Assembly (NCBI GenBank): GCA_016218785.1
Contig: JACRCY010000572.1
Coordinates: 1 to 35,471 of the forward strand
DNA: 35,471 nt
From: Deltaproteobacteria bacterium
Lineage (GTDB): Bacteria > Myxococcota_A > Polyangia > JACRCY01
Reading direction: 5' to 3'
The notes beneath the pieces are model-generated. The model searched no databases and was not told where the DNA came from. It saw only the letters and a program-made list of their open reading frames with translations. Made by a program: the position numbers and the translations under genes. Numbering within the stretch: the first letter of the stretch is position 1; each line of letters begins with the position of its first letter. Of this stretch, positions 1,406 to 32,829 are shown in pieces.

Positions 1406-2650
<1,245 letters not shown>

Positions 2651-2770: not shown

Positions 2771-4063
2771 ATGCTCCGCATCCTGCTCCCCGACGAGGCC
2801 GACTACCACGCGGAGGTCGCGCGCCTGCTCGACCGCGGCCGCGCGGTGCCGCCCGCGGTGGAGGAGACGGTGCGGGCCATCGTGGCCGACGTGCAGCGCC
2901 GGGGCGACGAGGCGGTGCGGGAGTACTGCGCGCGCTTCGACGGCGGGGCCCCGGAGCGGTTCGAGCTCCGCCGGGACGAGATCGAGGCGGCGGCCGCGGC
3001 GGCGACGCCGGAGGTGCGCGCGGCGCTCGAGCGGGCTGCGGCCCGCATCCGCGCCTTCCACGAGCGGCAACGGGTGGCGGGGTACGACTTCACCGACGCC
3101 GACGGAGTCCACCTGGGGCTGCGCGTGGCCCCGCTCGGGCGCGTCGGGCTCTACGTGCCCGGCGGTACCGCGCGCTACCCCTCGTCGGTCCTCATGACCG
3201 CCGTGCCGGCCAAGGTCGCGGGCGTCCCGGAGGTGGTGATGACCACGCCGGGGCCGTCGCCCGAGACCCTGGCGGCGGCGCTCATCGCCGGCGTCGACCG
3301 CGTCTTCACCCTGGGCGGCGCGCAGGCCATCGCGGCCCTGGCGTACGGCACCCGGAGCGTGCCCCGCGTCGACAAGATCGTGGGGCCCGGCAATGCCTGG
3401 GTGACGGCGGCCAAGCGGCTCGTCTACGGCGCCGTGGACATCGACGCCATCGCCGGACCGAGCGAGGTCCTGATCGTCGCCGACGAGACGGCGGAGCCCG
3501 CCTGGTGTGCCGCCGACCTGCTGGCGCAGGCCGAGCACGACCCCGACGCGGTGCCGGTGCTGGTGACGACCTCGGCTGCCCTGGCCGCAGCCGTGGCGCG
3601 CGCCGTCGAGACGCAGCTCGCCGATCTGCCGCGGCGCGCGATCGCCGCCGCCGCGCTCGCGGGGCAGGGCCGCATCGTGGTGGTCGCCGACGTGGCCGCG
3701 GCCGTGCGCTTCGCCAACGAGTTCGCGGCCGAGCACCTCGAGCTGCAGGTCCGCGCCGCCCGCGCCGCGCTGCCGGCGATCACCGCCGCCGGCGCGGTGT
3801 TCGTGGGACCCTTCACCACCGAGGCGCTGGGGGACTACTTCGCGGGCCCGAACCACGTGCTGCCCACGGCGGGCACGGCGCGGTGGGCGTCGGCGCTCGG
3901 GGTCCACGATTTCGTGCGGCAGACGACGGTGCTCGAGTACGACCGCGATGCGCTGCAGCGGCACGCCGCCGACGTTCAGCGCCTCGCCCAGGTCGAGGGG
4001 CTCGACGCGCACGGGCGGGCCGTCGCGGTGCGGCTCGGGCCGGGAGACCACCGTGATCGGTAG
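2771..4063 (+). CDS. hisD: Histidinol dehydrogenase
   Basis: [71 protein letters not shown]; start moved to ATG 2771. Confidence 0.97.
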
Positions 4064-4781
4064 CCGCCCCGGCCGCCGGCGGACGGGCGCGTGGCTCGCG
4101 CTCGTCGTCCTCAGCGCGCTCGTGCGGCCGGCCGCGGCCCAGGAGGTGCCGGTCGAGCCGGCGGCGCCGCCGCCGGCCGCGGCGGCGACCGCCACGCCTC
4201 CGCTCGTGACGCCGGCGAGCCAGCCGCTCGCGGAGCCGCTCCTCAAGGGCAAGAGCCTGCAGCCGGGCGAGCGCGGCCACAAGTCGCTGGCCTGGGCCGC
4301 CGCGTGGTCGTTCGGGAGCACGCTGCTGCCCGTGCTCATGGGCGGGTTCCTCACCCGCTCGCAGCAGGACGACGTCATGTGGACCGGCCTCGGCCTGATC
4401 GCGGCCGCCCAGTCGTTCGGGCCCTCGGCCGGCTACTGGTATGCCAGGGAGAGGGCCCGCTTCACCTGGTACCGCCTGGCCCTCTCGGGGATCGCGCTCG
4501 CCGCCGCCGGCTACCCGCTCTACGCGTACACCGGGCGCCTCGAGAGCTACAACAGCGGCGGCGCCGCGGCGCTCGTCACGCTAGCCGTCGTGGCCGAGGC
4601 GGTCACGCTCGCACTCGCGGCGTGGGACCTGAGCCTCCTCGGCGACGCCGTCGAGCGGCACAACGAGCGGCCGGTGCGGCCGCCGGCGAGCCAGCCACTC
4701 AAGGTGCGGGCCGCGGCGCCGATGGTGGCGCCCGTCGTGGTGCCCGGCGGCGGGGGCGTGGGCCTGACGGGGTGGTTCTAG
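4053..4781 (+). CDS. Hypothetical exported/membrane protein
   Basis: GTG start overlapping the hisD end; signal peptide ending AAA-QE; Pro/Ala linker; hydrophobic segments; C-terminal [17 protein letters not shown]. Confidence 0.7.
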
Positions 4782-19909: not shown

Positions 19910-21724
<1,815 letters not shown>

Positions 21725-24206: not shown

Positions 24207-24779
24207 CTACTGGCACGCGACCACGCACTCGGGCCACGGGGAGCAGCACAGCTCGGAGAACTCCTCTGGCACCGGCGCGCAGTCGGGGCGTGGTCCGTAG
24301 ACGATTGGCCGCACCCGGAAGCCAATCAACGAAGCCCCGTCACGTGACAGGACCTCGCCTGCGACCACGCCATCCCCTTCCTCGGTCACGTCAACCTCTC
24401 CCACATCGAGCTGATCCCAGCGGCAGGCCGCCGGCCTGGCGTCGGAGCACGACAGCGCTGTGGGATCTGAGCAGTCCGCGGAGTCTTCGTCGACCCGGAG
24501 CAGTGCAACTTGGCTCCAGGAGTTGAGCAGCCCTTCCCGCTGGACGGCCACGCGGATCGAAGAGGTTCCGAGATGAGCCCTACCGACTAGCCGAAAGTCG
24601 TACCCAATTGCATTCCACCAGTACGCGGCGGTGACCGTCTCGAACTGGACTGTGGTCGAGTCGGGCAAGAGGACACGACCACCTTCCTCGGGCGCCCTTG
24701 ACGGCGCATTGCACGCCGCCACCACTACGGCCATCAGACTACTAGCAAAGATCGAGGTCCTCAACCGCGCCCCGCGCAT
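24207..24779 (-). CDS. Hypothetical lipoprotein
   Basis: Lipobox-like VVVAAC after a basic, hydrophobic leader; Cys-rich C-terminus; overlaps the end of the upstream peptidase gene. Confidence 0.6.
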   Translation of the reverse strand: MRGARLRTSIFASSLMAVVVAACNAPSRAPEEGGRVLLPDSTTVQFETVTAAYWWNAIGYDFRLVGRAHLGTSSIRVAVQREGLLNSWSQVALLRVDEDSADCSDPTALSCSDARPAACRWDQLDVGEVDVTEEGDGVVAGEVLSRDGASLIGFRVRPIVYGPRPDCAPVPEEFSELCCSPWPECVVACQ

Positions 24780-26937
24780 TGAGCCTCCGTCCTCGTTCGA
24801 CGCGGCCGTCCAAGGACGGAAGGTCGCAGTTTCCGCCGCGGAGAATCCGTTGCTTGATAGCCGCCGGATCATGGGCGAGTCGGTCGAAATCGGTGGCGAT
24901 GACCAACACCGCCACCCCTGCTACCTGCGGCGCAGCTAGGGAGCTGCCCGATTCGAGTGCGGGCTCCACTCCCTCTGGATCGTGGGTCTCAAGACCGAGG
25001 CAGCGGTCACCAGGGAGGCTCGATAGGTTGATGCGCTTTGCCGACAGCACCGACATGTCGATCCCGGCAGCCGCCATCTGGTAGGCGCCGGCGCCCCATG
25101 AGATCCGCAGGTCCGCGGGGAAAGAGTCATCTTGCCGGACTGACGTGACGCTGATCTGGGTGTCCAGCCCCAGTTCCGTGGGCAGATCTTGCACGCCATC
25201 CTTGCCGAGATCCACCGCGTAGTTGACGCCACCGACCACCAAGAGCGCTTGACCGATGTTGGCGATCTCGAACGTCCGGCGCATGGACTCGGCCTTGTCC
25301 GCCCGGTCCGCGTCGCTGCAGCGGTACTTCTCGGGCACGCTGTCGTTCTGGGGAGCGCAGAGTTCGGACCAACTCGCGTTGATCACGCTCGCACCCAGGC
25401 CAATCGAGTAGTCGAGCGCATCATGTACCCTGTCGTACGGCATCATCTGGGTTTCGGGAGCGAACGCCCGCGTCACCAAGATCCTGACGCGCCACGCTTG
25501 CCCCACGTAGTTAGGGGCCCGGAGCCCGGCGGCCGCGAATATGCTCTCTCCATCCTCGGTCGCTCCTGCGATTCCCGCGACGGCCCCACCGTGTGCCATG
25601 GTGTTGCACGTGATTGGAATCTGGTCAGGGTAGGGCCAGTTGTCGTCACCGACGAAGTCCCACCCGACAAGGTCATCCGTGTGGCCGTTCGAGTCGTTGT
25701 CTTCGGTGTCCTCGAAAAGCCCGCAGCCCTCGTTAATGAGGTCGTCGAGGCGAACGAAGTCCGACCGGCCAAGGATGCCTAGGAGAAGGCTGCGGTTCGG
25801 TTCGATGTTGAAGTCGCGAAGCGTGGTCGCGCCGTCGCCATCAGCATCCAGAACCAGCGTCGAGATGTCGATGGGTGGGTCTCGCGGACGGCAGTCCTCG
25901 GTGAACCGCACCTCGTGGGGGATCTCTCCGACGTTGAAGAAGACATTCTCCTGGAGTTCCTCGTGGGCGAGATTCGCGCCGTGATCAACGACTGCCAACA
26001 CCACCCGACTATCCCCCACGGTCGTGTCCCAAGCCGCGGGGCTCTCAGTCTGGAACAGCCAGTACTGGGTCGTGTCACCGGGTCCGCTGAAGTCGGCGGG
26101 CAAGCGGTTCAGGCTGTGAGCGTTGTAGTTCCGCATGGCCCAGCGAACCTGGGGCTTGGCCCGATAGAAAGCGACTGCAGCGTTCTCGTCGGAGCCAGAG
26201 GGGAGCTGGACGGTGTACCAGGGGTGACGTGCGGAGCGGCGCGCGACAGTCGCACCTATCTCTGCATTGATCGAATCGACGGTCGCTTGGTCGGTGTCCT
26301 CGGCGAAGAGAGCGTAGACTTGGCCAGGAACGAACTGGGGCGGGATGAAGATATCCTCGCTTGCGAGTTCTCCAACCAGTACCGGCTTCACGATGTATTC
26401 GTTCGTGCGGTGCTCGTTGAAAGTGACTTGGACTTCGGGATCGAAGACCGCCTTGACGACTGTGATGGTGTCCGCTTTGACGGGGAACGGTTGTGTTTCA
26501 TCGGCCGGGATTATCTTGAGACCCGTCTGCGGGCCGCTCGGGAGTTTCACATCGTAGTCCGCCCCGTCCTTGATGACTTTGATCGATTCGGTGATGAAGC
26601 GGATCTGATGCACGTACCCTGGGGGCACGGAGAAGAGGCCGGCCTGCAGCGGCAGCGCCGCCGCCACGGCGACGATTCTGGTCGTGAAGGTCCCCTGGGC
26701 CACGGTGATCACTTTCTCGGATCCCGTCGGCGTGTCGGAATGAACCACGTCGACGCGGCTCGCGGTGATGTCCACCGACGAGATGCCCAACTCCGGAGCA
26801 GGTTTCCCCTCAATAGCCACCTCCAGCACCCCGGGTGCCGGGGGATCTCCACACCCGAGGAGCACCGACGCCGTGCCGGACCACCCGAGGACACACAAGA
26901 AGACAGACGACACCACCACGCGAGCCCGACGGCGCAT
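24742..26937 (-). CDS. Lipoprotein with a DUF4382-like domain and a divergent S8 peptidase domain
   Basis: Leader ..VLLGC; VPPGYVHQIRF..VKLPSGPQTGLKI..YIVKPV; LAVVDHG, DNDSNGHTDDLVGWDF, HGGAVAGIAG, SGSSLAAPQVAG; SD GGAGG before ATG 26937. Confidence 0.82.
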   Translation of the reverse strand: MRRRARVVVSSVFLCVLGWSGTASVLLGCGDPPAPGVLEVAIEGKPAPELGISSVDITASRVDVVHSDTPTGSEKVITVAQGTFTTRIVAVAAALPLQAGLFSVPPGYVHQIRFITESIKVIKDGADYDVKLPSGPQTGLKIIPADETQPFPVKADTITVVKAVFDPEVQVTFNEHRTNEYIVKPVLVGELASEDIFIPPQFVPGQVYALFAEDTDQATVDSINAEIGATVARRSARHPWYTVQLPSGSDENAAVAFYRAKPQVRWAMRNYNAHSLNRLPADFSGPGDTTQYWLFQTESPAAWDTTVGDSRVVLAVVDHGANLAHEELQENVFFNVGEIPHEVRFTEDCRPRDPPIDISTLVLDADGDGATTLRDFNIEPNRSLLLGILGRSDFVRLDDLINEGCGLFEDTEDNDSNGHTDDLVGWDFVGDDNWPYPDQIPITCNTMAHGGAVAGIAGATEDGESIFAAAGLRAPNYVGQAWRVRILVTRAFAPETQMMPYDRVHDALDYSIGLGASVINASWSELCAPQNDSVPEKYRCSDADRADKAESMRRTFEIANIGQALLVVGGVNYAVDLGKDGVQDLPTELGLDTQISVTSVRQDDSFPADLRISWGAGAYQMAAAGIDMSVLSAKRINLSSLPGDRCLGLETHDPEGVEPALESGSSLAAPQVAGVAVLVIATDFDRLAHDPAAIKQRILRGGNCDLPSLDGRVERGRRLNARGAVEDLDLC

Positions 26938-27458
26938 TGCGGCCCTCCGATCTGCAGATGCTTCAACTGGCCCGCCGCCTACAGCGGCACCAAGTGGAAA
27001 CGCGCGATGTAGGTAGCGTAGTTGAAACGGACAAGAAGATGAAACTGCTTTGGCGAGCGCGGGAGGGGACGACCGAGGACGGAACCAGGCTCGGCATCGC
27101 CGTTGAGAGTGCAAGGGAAGACCGCCGGGGCGTTGGGGTGGGTGAAGGCGAGCGAGCTGCGGCATGCGGGACGCGTGTGTGGCGGGCCCTTGGGGGACCA
27201 CAGGGCAGACGGGGTCCGCGGCGCACGCCCCGGAGGTCGTGGGGGCGCGCGCCCGCGCCCGCGGCAGCCGCGCCAGCGCGGCGCCGGGTGGGCCTCACGC
27301 GCGGGGTGGTGGACATCGATGCTACGCTCGCGAACGGGACCAGCAGTCTACGCGTGACCGGCACCGGGCGCGCGCCATAGGCAGAGGCGGAGCGACCTCC
27401 GTCCGGTGGGGGGCGCCAGGCCGGAGGGCGGGGTCGCTGTGGAATGGAGCTTGTCGAG

Positions 27459-27510
27459 CCCGACTGGGCCCCGACTGGGGCTTGCCTTTCCGACCGTCCT
27501 CCTGTACGGT
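27459..27510 (+). promoter_or_regulatory. Putative sigma70 promoter (TTGCCT-17-TACGGT) preceded by the direct repeat CCCGACTGGG x2 (11-bp period)
   Basis: Hexamers at 27482-27487 and 27505-27510; repeats at 27459-27468 and 27470-27479. Confidence 0.45.
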
Positions 27511-27553
27511 GCTGACCGTCCAGAGCTTCATTGATCTTGCCGAGGAGACGCCC

Positions 27554-28267
27554 ATGGCCGACACCTTCCCGTTCTCCCCCGTCAACCTGGTCGTGCTGCC
27601 GAAGTACAGCGTCCCGTCCGCCCTCGCAGTCGGTACCAAGATCCTCACGGTGGGCCGCGCCGAGGCCTCGCTGCCCGCGCCCATCGCGGCCGCGCTCGAG
27701 GACGTGGCCACCACGCATGGCCAACTGCAGCAGACCGCGGCGAGCCGGCACGCCGGGCCGGGGGACGCCGATCCCGAGCGGCTCCGGCGCGCCGACACCA
27801 GGGTTGACGACGGCTGGGCCGCGCTCTACCTGTGGTTGTGCGGCTGGGCGCGGCTCCCCGACGCCCCCGAGGCGGTGAAGGTCCGCGACGTCATCGCGGC
27901 GACCTACCCGGACCGGCTCAAGTTCACGCAGGCCTCGTACCCGGTCGAGTGGTCCGAGTCGCAGACCCGGCTCGATCACCTTGCCGGCCACGGCCACGAG
28001 GCGCTCATCCGCGGGCTGGGCGGCGAGCGCTTCATCACCGCGATCCGCGCGGCGCAGGCCGAGTACGGCGAGGCGCTGGGGCTGACCAAGCTCCAGCCGG
28101 GCGCGCCGCCGGCCGTCAACCTGCGCCAGCCGCTGGACGCGTTCGTCGACGCCCTGCGGCTCTACGTCGTGCGCGTATCGGCCAACATCGACATCGCCGT
28201 CCCCGCCACCAGCGCGCTCGCCGCGCGCCTGCTCGCGCCCCTCGCCGAGGACGGTCTCTCCGCCTGA
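27554..28267 (+). CDS. Hypothetical, probably all-alpha-helical cytoplasmic protein (237 aa)
   Basis: SD GAGGAG; GC3-rich; motifs ADTRVDDGW and YPDRLKFTQASYPVEWSESQTRL; loosely reminiscent of DUF6261-type helical proteins (unverified). Confidence 0.85.
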   Translation: MADTFPFSPVNLVVLPKYSVPSALAVGTKILTVGRAEASLPAPIAAALEDVATTHGQLQQTAASRHAGPGDADPERLRRADTRVDDGWAALYLWLCGWARLPDAPEAVKVRDVIAATYPDRLKFTQASYPVEWSESQTRLDHLAGHGHEALIRGLGGERFITAIRAAQAEYGEALGLTKLQPGAPPAVNLRQPLDAFVDALRLYVVRVSANIDIAVPATSALAARLLAPLAEDGLSA

Positions 28268-28411
28268 GCCAGCCGTAGCCACGGGCCGGTCTCCTGCGCC
28301 GCGACCCGGGGCGCGCGGGTCATCCAGCCCGAGCGGCTACACCCCACCAGCCCAGACGCCCGCGAACCACGGCCGGCGGTTGCGCCGCCGGCCTTCACGC
28401 CTCTTACCACA

Positions 28412-28662
28412 GGTAAGCACATGTAGGCCAAGGTGTGGTCCAAACCCCGGCCAGGGTTCCTTGATGTACCCCCGGGGCTGGTCTTGACCCCGGTCGGGGT
28501 TCATTCATGTACCCCCGGGGCTGGTCTTGACCCCGGCCATGGTTCATTCATGTACCCCCGGGGGTGGTCCAGACCCCGGCCATGGTTCATTCATGTACCC
28601 CCCGTCGGGGTCCTGACCCCGGCCCGGGGTTCATTCATGTACCCCCCGCCGGGGTCCTGAGC
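28412..28662. repeat. Tandem array of 6 units, 43-44 bp period: block A (GGTTCATTCATGTACC), 9 nt, block B (GGTCnnGACC), 8-9 nt
   Basis: Block A starts at 28412 (degenerate), 28455, 28498, 28541, 28584, 28628; block B at 28437, 28480, 28523, 28566, 28609, 28653. Confidence 0.95.
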
Positions 28663-28827
28663 CCGACCCGGCCACATCCGCGAAGCCACGCGGGCGCGGG
28701 CGGCCGGCCGCGTCCGGGTGCCACCGAGATGGGACCAGGATTCTCCTCCCTCCCCGTGTTGTGGCCCGTACTACTACTGGTGTAGCATCGCCCCCACGTG
28801 CCACCCGCTGTGCGGGAGGAGGTGCCC

Positions 28828-31800
28828 ATGTCGAACCGAAACTTCGGGCTCGCGGGCGTGACCGCGTTCGCGCTCTTCGTAGTCTTGCTCGGACCGGGGT
28901 GCTCGTGCGGGGGGGAAGCCCACCCCGCCCAGCAGGACGCGGCGCCGCAGCAGGACGTGGCGCCCCAGGAGGATGCGCAGGAGGACGCTCAGGACGACGC
29001 CTGGGTGCCGCCGGACGGCTACGTCCCCGACGGCTTCCAGCAGCCCGACGGCTACATCCCCGACGGCGGCACGGGCGTGCGCATCGAGGAGGTCGTGCCC
29101 GCGGCCATCGCGCGGGCGCAGGACAACGACGTCGAGATCATCGGTGACGGTTTCCAGGACGGGGCCTCGGTCACCCTCCGGAACTGCGACACCGGCACCG
29201 AGTACACCTTCACCGCCACCGTCACCGGCTTCGACGACGGCGGCGCGGGCGGGATCGCCACCATCACCGTCCCCGCCGACGTGGCGCGGGAGCAGGGGCT
29301 CTACACCGTCACCATCGTCAACCCGGACGGCTCCTTCGCCTCGCTCACGTGCGCCCTGTGGATCAGCGCGCAGGCGCCGCCCACCGTGACCGAGGTCAAG
29401 CCCGCCTCGGCGTCGCGGGGTGATCCGGCCGACGGCATCAGTTCCGACCAGTTGGTCACCATCGTCGGCACCGGCTTCCAGTCCACCCCCAACGTCCGCT
29501 GGCAGGAGCTGGCCACCGGCGACCTCTACGATGCCAAGATCGTGGGGTTCATCGACGGCCAGCACCTGACCGCGCTCTGCCCGTCGGAGAGCAAGCACAT
29601 GCCGGTCGGTGACTACCACGTCTGGGTCGTCAACCCCGACCTGCTCGCGGCCGAGTGGCTGGTCAACGGCACCACCCCCGGCATCTTCAAGATCATGGCG
29701 CTGCCGCCCCCGCGCATCGAGACTGTGACGCCCTTCACCTTCGCTGGCGCCGACTGCTCCAGCACCAACATGGAGGTCACGGGCTCCGGCCTCGTGCCCG
29801 ACACCGGCTCCGGCGGCACCACGTTCTGGATCGTGATGCCGGCGGGGACCACCACGTGCACGAGCGGGACCGGGCGCTATGACGCGCAGGGGAACTGGCT
29901 CTGCCCCATCACCACCACGATCAACAGCGCCACCAGCGCGACCATCAGCTTGAGCCCCAACTGCCCCAACAACGGCGCGTACCCGATCGAGGCCATCAAC
30001 CCCGACGGCCAGGCGGGCTTCTACTACTCGATCGTGCTGACGCCATCCTCCATCTGCAAGTTCCAGGCGGCCGGCAACACGTGGCAGGACACCACCGGGG
30101 GCCTGAAGACCAAGCGCTACCTGCTCGCGTCAGCCACCGGGTGCGACGAGTTCGGCCACGCCTTCATCTACGCTGCCGGCGGTCTGAACGACACCAACAC
30201 GGCCGTGGCGTCGGTGGAGTTCAGTGAGGTCGACCTCGGCGGGCTCCCCGGGCCCTGGCATGAGTCCCAGCAGTACTACGACGCGACCACTCCCCGTGTC
30301 ATCAACACCTTGGGCGGGCTGGTGGCCGACCAGCAGCCGCGCGCCGGGCTGACCATGATCCGAGTGGGGCGGCACCTCTACGCCATCGGTGGCACGGCCA
30401 CCAACAGCATCCAGAACCCGAGCCCTAACCCGGTGACCGCGCTCGACACGGTCGAGCACGCCTTCATCCTCGGCTATGAGACCATGCCGATGGCCCACAC
30501 GCCGAAGGTGGAGGGCACGGGTGGCCTGCCGATCGGCGCCTGGTACTACCGAGTCTCGGCCATCGGCGACTTCGGCGAGGGGCTCGCCTCCGACGAGGTG
30601 GTGATCCTGAACGAAGGCGGGACGCTCAAGGTGTGCTGGACCGTGCCACCGGCGCCGACCACGGCCACGGCGTACAACATCTACCGGACCAAGGCCGCCG
30701 ATGGACGCTCCCGCAGCGAGGTGCTGCTCGCGGCCGGCGTGGCGGGCGTCGACAGCGGCATCACCGGCATCAAGTGCTTCACCGACGACGGCTTCGGCGC
30801 CCTGACGCCCGCGCCGGGCCGGTTGCGCGGGGCGCCGGTCACGGGCGGCAGCCTCGTTGCCGGCACCTACCGGTACCGCGTGTCGGCCACGATCGACGAC
30901 GGCGGCGGGACGATCCGCGAAACCCTGGGCGGCTACGAGGCGGCCATTCAGGTCACGGCCGCGGACGTCACGGCGGGCCTCACGAGCGTCCAGCTCCACT
31001 GGGACCCCGTGCAGTACGCGTCGGCCTACAACCTCTACAAGTGGAACGCCACCGACCAGAAGTTCGTGATCTTCGCCAACACCGCGAACGGCGCCACCCT
31101 GACACTCACCGATGACGGCGGCACGCCGACGGCGGCTTGCCCGGTGAGCCGCGCCGACACCCCCTGCGCGGCCCTGGAGGGCTTCGACCCGCTGCCGTTC
31201 GGCTCCCTCTCGGTGTGGCGGGACACGGGCGTGAAGCTCAACACCGCCCGTGAGGGGCTCGACGGCGTACCGATCGTCCACGAGAACGACACCGACCCCA
31301 CGCAGAAGAAGTACTTCCTACTGATCGCGGGCGGCCGCTCGGACAACACCGATGGCAACGGCGCTTTCTTGAGCAGCGCCGAGAGCGTCGAGGTCGACTA
31401 CGCGACCGGCGCGCTGCAGAGCGTCACCGGGTACTTCGTCAACGAGACCCAACACATGGTGCTTCCGCACGCGTTCTTCCCCCTGGTGACCAACCAGGGG
31501 CGCAACGATCCGACCTTCTGCCCGCCGGCGGCGCAGCCGCCGTGCCAGGACCTCGACGGCGACGGCTACTACGACTGGGCCTGCGCCTCGCCGGACCAGA
31601 TGCCGTGCGACTGCGACGACACCGATCCGGAAGTCCACCCGGGCCCGCCCGATGAGCGGGGCCGGTGCACCAACGGCAAGGATGACGACTGCGATGGGCT
31701 CATCGACTGCGCCGACACCGCCGACTGCGCCGACGACCCGTACTGCACGGCGAGCTGCCCGGACGAGGACGGCGACGGCTACACCGCGGCCTGGTGCGGC

Positions 31801-32829
31801 GGCACCGACTGCTGCGACAACGGCACCGAGCAGTCGCTCGGATGCGATCCCACGACCGCGCCCGGCATCAACCCCGGCGCCACCGAGATCTGCGGCGACG
31901 GCATCGACCAAAACTGCGACGGCATCGATGACCCCTGCGCCTGCGACACCGACGCGGACGGCGACGGCCACGTCTCGATCGCCTGTGGCGGCGACGACTG
32001 CTGCGACAGCGGCACCGAGGGGAACGACTTCTTCTCCGGCCAGGGCACCATCGGCTGCAACCCGACGAACGCGAACGGCATCCACCCGGGGGCCTACGAT
32101 CCGTGCGGCGACTCCGTCGACCAGAACTGCGACGGCTGGGACTCGCTGTGCCGGGTCTACGGCGGCTCCATGGCCCGGCAGGTTCGCCAGCACGTGGCGG
32201 AGGGGCCCATGTCGGTGGTGCCGACGGCGCGCGGGCGCTGGGCAGACCGCGTCAACCGGCTGCCGCGGCCGACGCACCGGGCGCTGCCCAAGCTCTACGG
32301 CAGTGATCCCCGAGTGTGGGTCGTGGCGGCCCAGGGGCTGAACTCCTGGAGCGTGGCCGGCAACAACAACAGCGGCGAGAAGAACTTCGAGGCCTGCGAG
32401 CTGCTGGCCACCTGGCCGCCCGTCGCCGGCGCGCTCTTGACGACGTGCAGCTCCACCGCCGACCCGACGCAGTGGTCGCTGCAGGGGCAGGGCCCGCCGC
32501 AGTTCACCTTCGGGCACGACGCCGTCGTCTACGGTCACGATCCGAACGAGCCTGCGAGCTACACGTGCCTGTTCGACCTCTACGGCGCGGCGTCGCAGAC
32601 CATCGGCGGGGGACCCAGCGTGATCAACTCGGCCAGCAAGCGGTTCCCGTTCGACACCAACCCGAGCGCGCCGAACCTCGTGATCCTCAACAACCAGGCC
32701 GGCGCGCCGGCGCCAATCACCCCGCGCGCCTACTACCAGCTGGTCAGGCTCAACGGCTACATCTTCATCGTCGGCGGGCACTCCGGCGCCGCCGGGTTGA
32801 ACAGCGTCGAGCGGATCCAGCAGCAGTAG
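28828..32829 (+). CDS. Large surface lipoprotein with IPT/TIG-like repeats, Kelch-like blades, two FN3-like modules and Cys/Asp-rich (MopE-related-like) repeats
   Basis: Leader ..LLGPGCSC; VTIVNPDG/VVNPD/AINPDG Ig-like ends; IYAAGG, LYAIGG, LIAGG, FIVGG; DLDGDGY..DCDD..VHPG, EICGDGIDQNCDG; SD GGAGGAGG. Confidence 0.88.
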   Translation: MSNRNFGLAGVTAFALFVVLLGPGCSCGGEAHPAQQDAAPQQDVAPQEDAQEDAQDDAWVPPDGYVPDGFQQPDGYIPDGGTGVRIEEVVPAAIARAQDNDVEIIGDGFQDGASVTLRNCDTGTEYTFTATVTGFDDGGAGGIATITVPADVAREQGLYTVTIVNPDGSFASLTCALWISAQAPPTVTEVKPASASRGDPADGISSDQLVTIVGTGFQSTPNVRWQELATGDLYDAKIVGFIDGQHLTALCPSESKHMPVGDYHVWVVNPDLLAAEWLVNGTTPGIFKIMALPPPRIETVTPFTFAGADCSSTNMEVTGSGLVPDTGSGGTTFWIVMPAGTTTCTSGTGRYDAQGNWLCPITTTINSATSATISLSPNCPNNGAYPIEAINPDGQAGFYYSIVLTPSSICKFQAAGNTWQDTTGGLKTKRYLLASATGCDEFGHAFIYAAGGLNDTNTAVASVEFSEVDLGGLPGPWHESQQYYDATTPRVINTLGGLVADQQPRAGLTMIRVGRHLYAIGGTATNSIQNPSPNPVTALDTVEHAFILGYETMPMAHTPKVEGTGGLPIGAWYYRVSAIGDFGEGLASDEVVILNEGGTLKVCWTVPPAPTTATAYNIYRTKAADGRSRSEVLLAAGVAGVDSGITGIKCFTDDGFGALTPAPGRLRGAPVTGGSLVAGTYRYRVSATIDDGGGTIRETLGGYEAAIQVTAADVTAGLTSVQLHWDPVQYASAYNLYKWNATDQKFVIFANTANGATLTLTDDGGTPTAACPVSRADTPCAALEGFDPLPFGSLSVWRDTGVKLNTAREGLDGVPIVHENDTDPTQKKYFLLIAGGRSDNTDGNGAFLSSAESVEVDYATGALQSVTGYFVNETQHMVLPHAFFPLVTNQGRNDPTFCPPAAQPPCQDLDGDGYYDWACASPDQMPCDCDDTDPEVHPGPPDERGRCTNGKDDDCDGLIDCADTADCADDPYCTASCPDEDGDGYTAAWCGGTDCCDNGTEQSLGCDPTTAPGINPGATEICGDGIDQNCDGIDDPCACDTDADGDGHVSIACGGDDCCDSGTEGNDFFSGQGTIGCNPTNANGIHPGAYDPCGDSVDQNCDGWDSLCRVYGGSMARQVRQHVAEGPMSVVPTARGRWADRVNRLPRPTHRALPKLYGSDPRVWVVAAQGLNSWSVAGNNNSGEKNFEACELLATWPPVAGALLTTCSSTADPTQWSLQGQGPPQFTFGHDAVVYGHDPNEPASYTCLFDLYGAASQTIGGGPSVINSASKRFPFDTNPSAPNLVILNNQAGAPAPITPRAYYQLVRLNGYIFIVGGHSGAAGLNSVERIQQQ

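Follow-up and report, generated by a model that had tools for sequence, protein, structure and literature searches.

Genes encoding a family of helical orphan proteins (family A) and short tandem arrays of conserved geometry form a recurrent pair in Polyangia genomes, with one array per gene: an array flanks 68 of the 115 family A loci in 62 Polyangia-class genomes, lying downstream of the gene at 35 loci, upstream at 33, and on both sides at none. The periods are 41–44 bp or multiples of these, apart from two arrays at 21 bp, and the unit sequences of different loci are unrelated and unalignable. Our leading, still tentative, reading is that the array would act as a DNA platform of phased dyad sites on one face of the helix, with a geometry like that of sopC, and that its binder is probably the adjacent protein.

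The window, by which we mean the whole stretch of 35,471 nt that was analysed, comes from a groundwater myxobacterium, and the features of the gene and its array are collected in Table 1. An earlier note on this DNA had described a gene of 237 codons with its own Shine-Dalgarno sequence, followed about 145 bp later by an array of six units; all of these are present, with a measured gap of 144 nt between the stop codon and the first unit. The start codon agrees with those of the homologues, the profile alignment beginning at residue 3–5, and the neighbouring genes encode an S8 peptidase and a MopE/Kelch protein (Pfam). No sigma-70-like sites and no intrinsic terminators were called in 27200–28900 by a consensus scan, and no Rfam family matched within 27000–29000 at E≤1. 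Because the terminator scan did not call the GC-rich hairpin between the gene and the array, we infer only that this hairpin may act as a terminator. The array copy number may be inexact, because the window belongs to a short-read metagenome bin of low depth (word depth 3–36); the locus is present in one DNA run, from a groundwater metagenome, and in no listed RNA run, and the contigs of that DNA run across the locus are short fragments, without joints or indels.

Table 1. Gene, flanking signals and array elements in the window (positions are those of the whole stretch).
Feature	Position	Strand	Basis or remark
Shine-Dalgarno-like GAGGAG	27542..27547	+	6 nt 5′ of the ATG; read from sequence
237-residue protein gene, function not assigned	27554..28267, including TGA	+	ATG at 27554; ORF and translation
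GC hairpin GGCCGGCGG-TTGCG-CCGCCGGCC, no T-run	28371..28393	+	between gene and array; sequence
Array of six 43/44-bp units	28412..28670; in-register unit starts 28412 (degenerate), 28455, 28498, 28541, 28584 (44 nt), 28628	.	
Degenerate array unit 1 (GGTAAGCACATGTAGG ... GGTCCAAACC)	28412..28454	.	units printed in register
Five well-kept units of 43, 43, 43, 44 and 43 bp	28455..28670	.	TRF; nhmmer unit profile, E 2e-13 to 2e-9
Block A, 16-bp imperfect dyad GGTWCAT-NN-ATGWACC	28455..28643; starts 28455, 28498, 28541, 28584, 28628	.	locus-specific
Block B, dyad GGTC-NN-GACC	28437..28662; starts 28437, 28480, 28523, 28566, 28609, 28653	.	read from sequence

Tandem Repeats Finder (TRF) reports the array at 28435–28665 with a period of 43, 5.3 copies, 87% matches and a score of 292, and this is the sole row with a period above 33 among the 62 rows in the window. 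In each well-kept unit, block A is followed by a CCCCGGGG-type segment and block B by a CCGGCC segment. Both blocks had been proposed as palindromes, and both descriptions hold: block A, GGTTCATTCATGTACC, is a 16-nt imperfect palindrome that is exact in four units and has two mismatches in a fifth, and copies of the GGTCnnGACC palindrome are located in all six units. With up to three mismatches allowed, block A has five matches against 0.02 expected, a number reached in none of 100 shuffles. The centres of blocks A and B alternate at distances of 22 and 21 bp, and the two blocks would therefore lie on the same face of the helix. TTGACC occurs inside two block B copies, but a promoter within the units was rejected, there being no plausible −10 element at 16–18 nt.

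The source genome assembly is 6.3 Mb in length and 75% complete, and within it a profile of the unit (nhmmer) matches five units on contig C465 and five on C630 at E<1e-4, with the next best match at E=0.066. The unit is thus present at only two loci of this 75%-complete genome, each 3′ of the 237-residue gene or of a truncated paralogue. The likeness to bacterial interspersed mosaic elements (BIMEs) suggested earlier is confined to the alternation of intergenic palindromes; REP sequences are dispersed genome-wide in many copies, whereas this unit is not scattered, and the objection that it might be an ordinary REP/BIME found irrespective of the gene fails. The array on C630 bears the same short segments as that in the window, and in some of its units the half-sites of block A are swapped (GGTACATTGATGAACC), with the dyad kept and the hairpin not improved. 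A further paralogue, on C647, has a degenerate array in which only GATCGATC is kept, three times at exactly 42-bp spacing, the remainder having drifted. On C630, C547/C168 and C658, too, arrays remain next to genes that are truncated.

The recurrence of arrays with conserved geometry and divergent sequence beside homologues was what the earlier note had looked to for support, and the 68 loci provide it. If the two sides were independent, arrays on both sides would be expected at about 10 loci by simple arithmetic, compared with none observed. Downstream arrays begin 3–243 nt past the stop codon, several of them at 3–13 nt, and 32 of the upstream arrays end 65–303 nt ahead of the start codon, the other ending 551 nt ahead. 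Strong self-similarity is seen in 36/112 downstream regions (700 nt) and 29/101 upstream regions, versus 2/115 coding regions, and always at a lag of 42/43 or 83–87, or in one case 21. Higher-order periods of 84–86 and 127 bp with homogenised units also occur, and the array at locus L014 has a 21-bp period. A TRF-detectable array is absent at 47 of the 115 loci, and no neighbouring gene is conserved, the most frequent recurring at 6/115. Placement on either side of the gene went beyond what the earlier note could see. At locus L070 a good sigma-70-like promoter, TTGACC-17 nt-TAGATA, lies about 20 nt past the upstream array, and the promoter is less clear in three other upstream-array loci inspected by eye. 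A literature search, its coverage excluding subscription journals, found nothing describing 42–43-bp arrays in Polyangia or other myxobacteria.

The dyads are the best-preserved parts of the units. In 46/62 arrays, conservation between units is higher at the dyad positions than at the remaining ones (0.916 versus 0.862; Wilcoxon p=4.7e-5, an overstated significance in that the genomes are related and not independent), and 19/62 arrays reach a dyad score of at least 7, compared with 31/1320 shuffles. Dyad centres of 0 or 2 nt are found in 32/47 arrays versus 181/596 shuffles, which on this analysis appears operator-like rather than typical of hairpin loops. Comparison of unit sequences indicates that the element common to the family A arrays is block B, not block A: GGTC-N0-4-GACC is present in 19/66 family A arrays, from six host families, versus 0.49 in shuffles, and ranks first when the dyads of all 256 4-mers are compared in these arrays. 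This dyad is specific to the family, being found in 0/13 arrays at loci of an unrelated gene family (family B) and in 1/18 other arrays of the same genome. The GGATGTCC dyad adjoins family A proteins of different clades within one host family, which counts against the DNA-platform reading.

The 237-residue protein is an all-helical, mildly acidic orphan (pI 5.7), with an AF2 model composed of helices only (pLDDT 91.8), and 25/26 family members have a pI of 5.1–6.3. The family is large, with 1867 cluster representatives (50% identity clusters) at E≤1e-3, and is patchily distributed, being present in 62/401 genomes with up to six or more copies per genome; 40 homologues were examined and none has a Pfam domain. 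The protein itself matches no Pfam family at E≤0.1, and PHROGs, PADLOC and NCBIfam gave no families for it or for six other array-adjacent proteins, which have only sub-threshold noise in Pfam. No DNA-binding motif or fold is recognisable in it by Pfam, NCBIfam, PHROGs, PADLOC or structure searches. Foldseek found no match in the PDB at E≤0.001, and the best structures in a wide VIA-align search are generic four-helix bundles with Z scores of 8.0–9.4, below the meaningful level for helical proteins. There is no tblastn match among 72,556 plasmid records, and a pattern-based locus search with the single protein yielded 273 pattern matches, none of them confirmed.

The protein is predicted to form a symmetric homodimer. 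The model scores 0.67, compared with 0.00 for the best control, with contact agreement of at least 97% and partner pLDDT of at least 78; in calibration, 20/30 solved homodimers and 1/23 monomers reached the mark. The predicted interface, at residues 83–104 and 156–167, coincides with the most conserved helix. A distant relationship to DUF6261 (PF19775) is suggested by weak matches of relatives and by the Atlas neighbours: DUF6261 is carried by 12–38% of the members of the Myxococcota clusters that lie nearest in protein-language and structure comparison, and 10/26 aligned family A members have weak Pfam matches to it (best E 2.2e-4). However, the window protein is unmatched even at E≤1, and thus does not reach the gathering score of 27 bits, and PF19775 finds nothing in the source genome at E≤0.01. 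DUF6261, which includes Bacteroidota proteins named HagB, has no known function, and the papers found mention it only in passing.

Of the two mechanisms that had been offered, a multi-site DNA platform with a period of about four helical turns and a processed RNA, the former fits best, because the dyads are centred at 0 or 2 nt and are better conserved than their surroundings and because there is neither a strand nor a wobble signature. We propose that dyad-symmetric protein-binding sites are lined up along each array at 42–43 bp, or about four helical turns; with the two dyads in each unit about two turns apart, all of the sites would face the same side of the helix. The likeliest binder would be the homodimeric helical protein encoded next door, recognising block B, and dimers on successive units could bind cooperatively and build up a nucleoprotein complex. 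At upstream arrays such a complex would abut the promoter of the gene and might serve as an operator or insulator; at arrays just past the stop codon, as in the window, it may mark the locus in cis. Against the DNA-platform reading are the want of a recognisable DNA-binding fold, the acidic character of the family, the 47/115 loci that have no array, and the arrays found elsewhere.

The closest parallel in geometry is sopC of the F plasmid, the centromere that SopB binds in a type Ia partition system. In sopC, 12 units of 43 bp containing one 16-bp inverted repeat apiece follow immediately on the gene for the protein that binds them; the spacing is about four helical turns, with the sites sharing one face, arrays range from 3 to 17 units, and sopC-like sequences are reported on enterobacterial plasmids only (PMC3177203). 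The window array matches this in unit length (43 bp), in the 16-bp imperfect dyad of its units and in its place after the adjacent gene. It differs in that the window has no ParB/SopB helix-turn-helix protein (Pfam and NCBIfam; no ParB among the structural matches) and no adjacent ParA-type NTPase, no neighbour family occurring at more than six of the 115 loci. Moreover, the family A modules are chromosomal, with several copies per genome, an array on either side and an acidic helix-bundle protein. Iteron arrays at plasmid rep genes (P1 incC/incA, F incB/incC) are a second parallel, being phased direct repeats of 17–22 bp, asymmetric, spaced at whole turns upstream and/or downstream of the gene and bound by the protein of that adjoining gene. 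The phasing of repeats flanking an adjoining gene is shared with these, as is the 21-bp period of the L014 array, but family A units are of 42–43 bp with dyads, arrays never occupy both sides of a locus, and Rep_3 and winged-helix matches (Pfam), a replicon context and plasmid matches are all absent.

The strongest competing explanation, which we consider possible but unlikely, is that these are generic Polyangia intergenic minisatellites, formed by slippage or unequal exchange at hairpin-forming palindromes, with the period set by a general host process or architectural protein and with no specific partnership between array and neighbouring protein; family A would adjoin arrays only in that both accumulate in variable accessory DNA. 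The distribution of arrays in the source genome speaks for this. There are about 20 arrays of the same period, mostly next to genes outside family A, and among TRF periods of at least 25 bp that are not multiples of three almost all are at 41–43 (one row at 41, eight at 42 and eight at 43, with single rows at 25, 26, 28 and 34). A fixed-step 400-kb sample of genome G398 contains four arrays, three of them beside unrelated, larger genes (507, about 708 and about 867 codons). Arrays are also present at 10/22 full-length family B loci, and several other orphan genes have the same array geometry with no detectable homology. Because arrays of the same period also adjoin other genes, a general host factor, or none, could explain the geometry. 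The periods of 84–86 and 127 bp with homogenised units are typical of satellite evolution, and truncated genes keep their arrays at the three places noted above.

The array-adjacent proteins give no sign of a common superfamily: comparison of the array-adjacent proteins with the family A profile gave single-sequence hhalign probabilities of at most 1.7%, profile–profile comparison of A1 with A2 gave 0.3%, and blastp among the candidates joins only C69 with C547. The family B model has longer helices.

Several observations weigh against generic minisatellites. By simple arithmetic the frequency of arrays at family A loci is enriched about 30- to 100-fold over the approximately 2.5 arrays per Mb in genome G000 and 7.5–10 per Mb in G398. 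The absence of loci with arrays on both flanks runs against it, as does the retention of the GGTC-N-GACC dyad over six host families in units that otherwise cannot be aligned; dyads are more constrained than linkers, and a neutral process leaves the narrow period window unexplained. Mycobacterial MIRU-type VNTRs are likewise tandem repeats of tens of bp between genes, variable in copy number, with a few sequence families spread over many loci. Family A loci differ in that each has its own unit sequence, and what the loci share is limited to the period and the occurrence of dyads.

An RNA role, in which transcription of the array together with the gene or next to it would yield RNA processed into 43-nt protein-binding units, as in type III toxin–antitoxin systems or another RNA–protein complex, appears improbable. 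The layout is similar, a tandem non-coding array beside a protein gene; known type III families have repeats of 31–62 nt in 1.9–5.6 copies with a family-typical length and divergent sequence, one locus with repeats downstream of the toxin, a patchy multi-copy distribution, and truncated toxins that keep full repeat sets (PMC3401426). Family A shares with these its patchy distribution in multiple copies, its variable genomic context and its truncated genes with intact arrays. At several loci the downstream array begins only 3–13 nt past the stop codon and would therefore be co-transcribed. Yet nothing in the units points to RNA. Folding energy is strand-symmetric, the sense strand being better in 17/35 arrays (p=0.70) and G exceeding C in 16/35, and there is no wobble preference (42 G.T and 42 A.C mismatches). 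Dyad centres are mostly of 0 or 2 nt, the half-site swap on C630 keeps the mismatch and leaves the stem unrepaired, and Rfam has no match at the locus. The type III toxins (ToxIN, CptIN, TenpIN) are endoribonucleases of another fold, and the 237-residue protein is not of the ToxN, CptN or TenpN type in fold or family (Pfam, PADLOC; a model of helices only). Type III repeats function as RNA and are located upstream of the toxin gene, separated from it by a terminator, whereas the window array is downstream, family A arrays are divided between the two sides, and several upstream arrays fall outside the likely transcript, just ahead of the promoter, which they can abut. The DNA-type dyads of family A units differ too, and the 47 loci without an array are hard to square with an obligatory antitoxin.

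A TIGR- or CRISPR-like array of guides, whose nucleic-acid-targeting spacers would be the short segments separating blocks A and B, is already close to refuted: the likeness is a superficial one of layout, with two conserved blocks that alternate and are set apart by short stretches, the lists of 9-nt and 8/9-nt segments given earlier agree with the sequence, and these supposedly variable segments are almost unchanged between units (CCCGGGGCT twice, then CCCGGGGGT; CCGGCCAT twice), the entire 43-nt unit repeats at 87%, and the segments are common to the C630 array, in place of the unit-specific spacers of TIGR-Tas. As had been observed from the translation, Nop, Cas and nuclease families are absent from the protein and its 25 aligned relatives (Pfam; seven families at E≤1); a Nop-domain Tas protein was not found (Pfam at E≤0.1, and at E≤1 for the 26 aligned members), and fold searches list no Nop fold, the best matches being generic helix bundles.

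Returning to the DNA platform, a broader and more doubtful proposal is that these loci represent an undescribed class of Polyangia modules, self-contained with one gene and one array, each consisting of a dimeric helical orphan protein of about 230–265 residues, from several unrelated-looking families, together with its own 42–43-bp dyad array in cis. Such modules would be a motor-less chromosomal analogue of a centromere or iteron or, if the arrays are RNA, a new protein–RNA type of toxin–antitoxin system, with several copies of orthogonal specificity in a genome and arrays that outlast decayed genes. Should the pairing prove functional, the flanking array would become a testable ligand for a large orphan family, and Polyangia genomes would carry dozens of phased nucleoprotein sites. 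An orphan gene with a 42–43-bp array provides a search rule for further modules. A strict 42–43-bp period over unrelated sequences is a rare and clean structural constraint in bacterial non-coding DNA, and explaining it, whether by a cooperative binder on one face of the helix, a ruler for array formation or an RNA–protein assembly, would add new chromosome biology.

The earlier note's description of a gene followed by a 43-bp dual-palindrome array is borne out in the window, with the open reading frame, a GAGGAG 6 nt ahead of its ATG, six units, a TRF period of 43 (5.3 copies, 87% matches; no other of the window's 62 TRF rows exceeds a period of 33), and five matches at three or fewer mismatches to block A, the 16-bp imperfect dyad GGTWCAT-NN-ATGWACC, where 0.02 are expected. 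A consensus scan of the region gave no match to the promoter also proposed for the gene. The centres of block A and of block B, the GGTC-NN-GACC dyad, are alternately 22 and 21 bp apart in the array, which puts all of the dyads on the same helix face.

Coordinates of genes, arrays and neighbouring repeats (C, contigs of the window's own genome; L, compared loci)
Sequence	Position	Strand	Feature	Remark
Window	20032–20070		(GCC)13 trinucleotide run	top-scoring short-period repeat of the window
Window	24742–27201	−	flanking gene, 819-aa S8 subtilase	DUF4382 and fervidolysin-like prodomain
Window	27554 (ATG) to 28265–28267 (TGA)	+	237-aa gene	read from sequence
Window	28371–28393		GC hairpin, 9 bp	within the 144-nt stretch between gene stop and array
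Window	starts 28412 (degenerate), 28455, 28498, 28541, 28584 (44 nt), 28628		array units, six	first unit 144 nt past stop
Window	28798–32829	+	flanking gene, 1343 aa	MopE metal-binding motifs, Kelch motif
Window	28926–29067		coding tandem repeats	N-terminal region of 1343-aa protein
C7	4019–4161		array	own genome (L127–L143); the arrays tabulated are examples
C42	1196–1299		array	as C7
C69	1850–2035		array	as C7
C119	2575–2839		array	as C7
C131	543–672		array	as C7
C634	6253–6519		array	as C7
L138 (C547)	gene 2693–2941, array 3027–3155		gene fragment and array	3′ piece related to C69 gene
L134 (C168)	gene 3–170, array 250–387		gene fragment and array	3′ piece related to C69 gene
L140 (C658)	gene 4249–4551, array 4607–4822		gene fragment and array	N-terminal piece of family B
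L131 (C119)	1841–2551		family B founder	237 aa, long helices; further loci L144–L173
L141 (C630)	3396–3703	opposite	small coiled-coil gene, TNERL-type repeats	beside the 20-bp repeat
L141 (C630)	3753–3850		20-bp tandem repeat, ~5 copies	directly upstream of truncated paralogue
L143 (C647)	from ~2290		similar coiled-coil gene	~400 nt downstream of paralogue
L181	8853–9123		array, 41–43 bp	G398, beside non-family gene
L191	1084–1330		array, 41–43 bp	as L181
L192	3860–4109		array, 41–43 bp	as L181

Of 401 genomes sampled from the Polyangia, 62 encode homologues of the 237-aa protein (family A), often more than one each. We compared 115 loci drawn from among the matches listed (35 from searches and 80 fetched by coordinate, matches with too short a flank being left out), the genes being delimited stop to stop with a profile match, without a gene caller, in mostly draft assemblies of which related ones are not independent. 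TRF on the 1000 nt past each stop reports arrays at 35 loci, with periods of 41–43, 84–86, 127 or, once, 21, that begin 3–243 nt past the stop; non-coding tandem repeats of other periods (15, 17, 26 and 27) occur downstream in four loci only. Upstream arrays are present at 32 loci with periods of 41–44 or 127 and at one more with a period of 21, and stop 65–303 nt ahead of the gene start (551 nt in one). A flanking array is therefore seen at no fewer than 68 of the 115 loci, a lower bound because TRF misses degenerate arrays such as that on C647; none of the 115 has arrays on both sides, and the side tracks the clades of the protein tree. In an alignment-free check all strong self-similarity is at lags of 42/43, 83–87 or 21, in 36 of 112 regions past the stop and 29 of 101 ahead of the start, versus 2 of 115 coding regions. 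The unit sequences of different loci are unrelated to one another, and recurrent arrays of the same geometry but divergent sequence beside homologues, which the earlier note had named as support for its proposal, are thus what was obtained.

The own genome, a bin of 665 contigs (6.3 Mb, 75% complete), contains the window's unit at two places only, the window and C630 (nine-unit profile, E 2e-13 to 7.5e-5), the best further match having E=0.066; a repeat scattered through this genome is rejected, since matches are confined to these two contigs. C630 retains no more of a paralogue than its final 37 codons (86% amino acid identity), with DNA identity of 90.6% over 160 bp extending about 55 bp beyond the stop. 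A six-unit array 83–85% identical to that of the window comes next, and the flanks are unrelated. In some of its units block A reads GGTACATTGATGAACC, the half-sites being exchanged such that the dyad is kept, and the central mismatch too. Full-length paralogues on C207 (46% identity) and C647 (39%) have no array detectable by TRF, yet on C647 GATCGATC occurs three times, spaced at exactly 42 bp, and the rest of the sequence there is unrelated.

Arrays of this kind are not confined to family A. Tandem periods in the own genome that are at least 25 bp and not a multiple of three sit almost only at 41–43. This genome has about 20 arrays of period 41–43 (one of 84), of which only those of the window and C630 adjoin family A. 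Several begin 14–284 nt past stand-alone orphan genes close in length to that of the window (232, 236, 236, 237, 252 and 257 aa), and others come after 3′ fragments of such genes; the fragments on C547 and C168 are 91% identical and have a common array unit. The arrays beside these two fragments and beside that on C658 are intact; as on C630, arrays outlast, or travel with, gene pieces. A second orphan family, family B, has no profile similarity to family A, is present in 12 of the 401 genomes (10 of which also have family A), and 10 of its 22 near-full-length loci have a 41–43-bp array no more than 300 nt away, on one side or the other. A fixed-step sample of 400 kb from a complete 10.3-Mb genome (G398) contains four arrays, one at a known family A locus and three beside unrelated genes (507, ~708 and ~867 aa), which suggests on the order of 100 in that genome. 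Array density is about 2.5–10 per Mb in the background versus about 340 per Mb in family A flanks, by arithmetic a 30- to 100-fold enrichment without exclusivity. That 41–43-bp arrays are widespread in these genomes limits the claim for family A.

Generic minisatellites without a specific partner are a somewhat less likely explanation than the phased-site reading given below, to be weighed between this wide distribution and the conservation within the units. In 46 of 62 arrays the dyad positions are more conserved among units than the linkers (p=4.7e-5, related genomes not being independent). Strong dyads are about 13 times as frequent as in shuffled units, and 32 of 47 arrays have a dyad centre of 0 or 2 nt, versus 30% of shuffles. 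GGTC-N0-4-GACC ranks first among dyads of all 256 4-mers and occurs in 19 of 66 family A arrays, across six host families, versus 0.49 expected, but in none of 13 arrays at family B loci and in one of 18 other arrays of the same genome. Block B is thus the family-wide element, and block A a local one.

The earlier note had offered either an RNA partner or a DNA platform. Of 35 arrays, 17 have the more stable fold on the sense strand (p=0.70) and 16 have more G than C, and imperfect dyad pairs comprise 42 G.T and 42 A.C. At locus L070 a sigma-70-like promoter of good quality (TTGACC-17 nt-TAGATA) begins about 20 nt past the end of the upstream array; the promoter is less clear at the three other upstream-array loci printed. 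[quoted passage not shown] Guide arrays are scarcely credible. Some upstream units at two family A loci (L018 and L057, in G032 and G123) consist of a long GC-rich hairpin and then a T-run, each resembling an intrinsic terminator, unlike the window's units, which have no T-runs.

Searches of Pfam, NCBIfam, PHROGs and PADLOC found nothing for the window protein, whose 40 homologues in a 90%-identity clustered collection are all unnamed or hypothetical (one is from Polyangium jinanense). With a family profile, 1867 cluster representatives match at E≤1e-3 and 653 of them at E≤1e-30; almost all of the 150 that were listed have lengths of 230–310 aa. Family A proteins are mildly acidic. An AF2 model of high confidence (pLDDT 91.8) contains helices only; Foldseek found nothing with it, and VIA-align gave generic bundles only (Z≤9.4). 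The closest Atlas clusters are Myxococcota hypotheticals with DUF6261 in 12–38% of members, and 10 of 26 relatives have weak DUF6261 matches; the window protein itself has none, and a PF19775 search of the own genome found nothing. A symmetric homodimer is predicted with a score of 0.67 versus 0.00 for the best control, with contact agreement of at least 97% and partner pLDDT of at least 78; in calibration, 20 of 30 solved homodimers reached the mark set for this prediction, as did 1 of 23 monomers. The predicted interface (residues 83–104 and 156–167) includes the most conserved helix.

A literature search found no description of such arrays, most subscription journals being outside its coverage. 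The best-supported reading of the array, held tentatively at a little under an even chance, is a phased row of dyad-symmetric putative binding sites on one helix face. This would be geometrically the same solution as sopC of F (PMC3177203), which has twelve 43-bp units, each with a 16-bp inverted repeat, spaced at about four helical turns. That the adjacent predicted homodimer binds these sites is about half as probable as the phased-site reading itself, and is disfavoured by the lack of a known DNA-binding fold, the acidity, and the arrays beside other genes; the family-specific dyad, the single array per gene, and the linkage of gene and array on either side would nonetheless make this neighbour the prime candidate.
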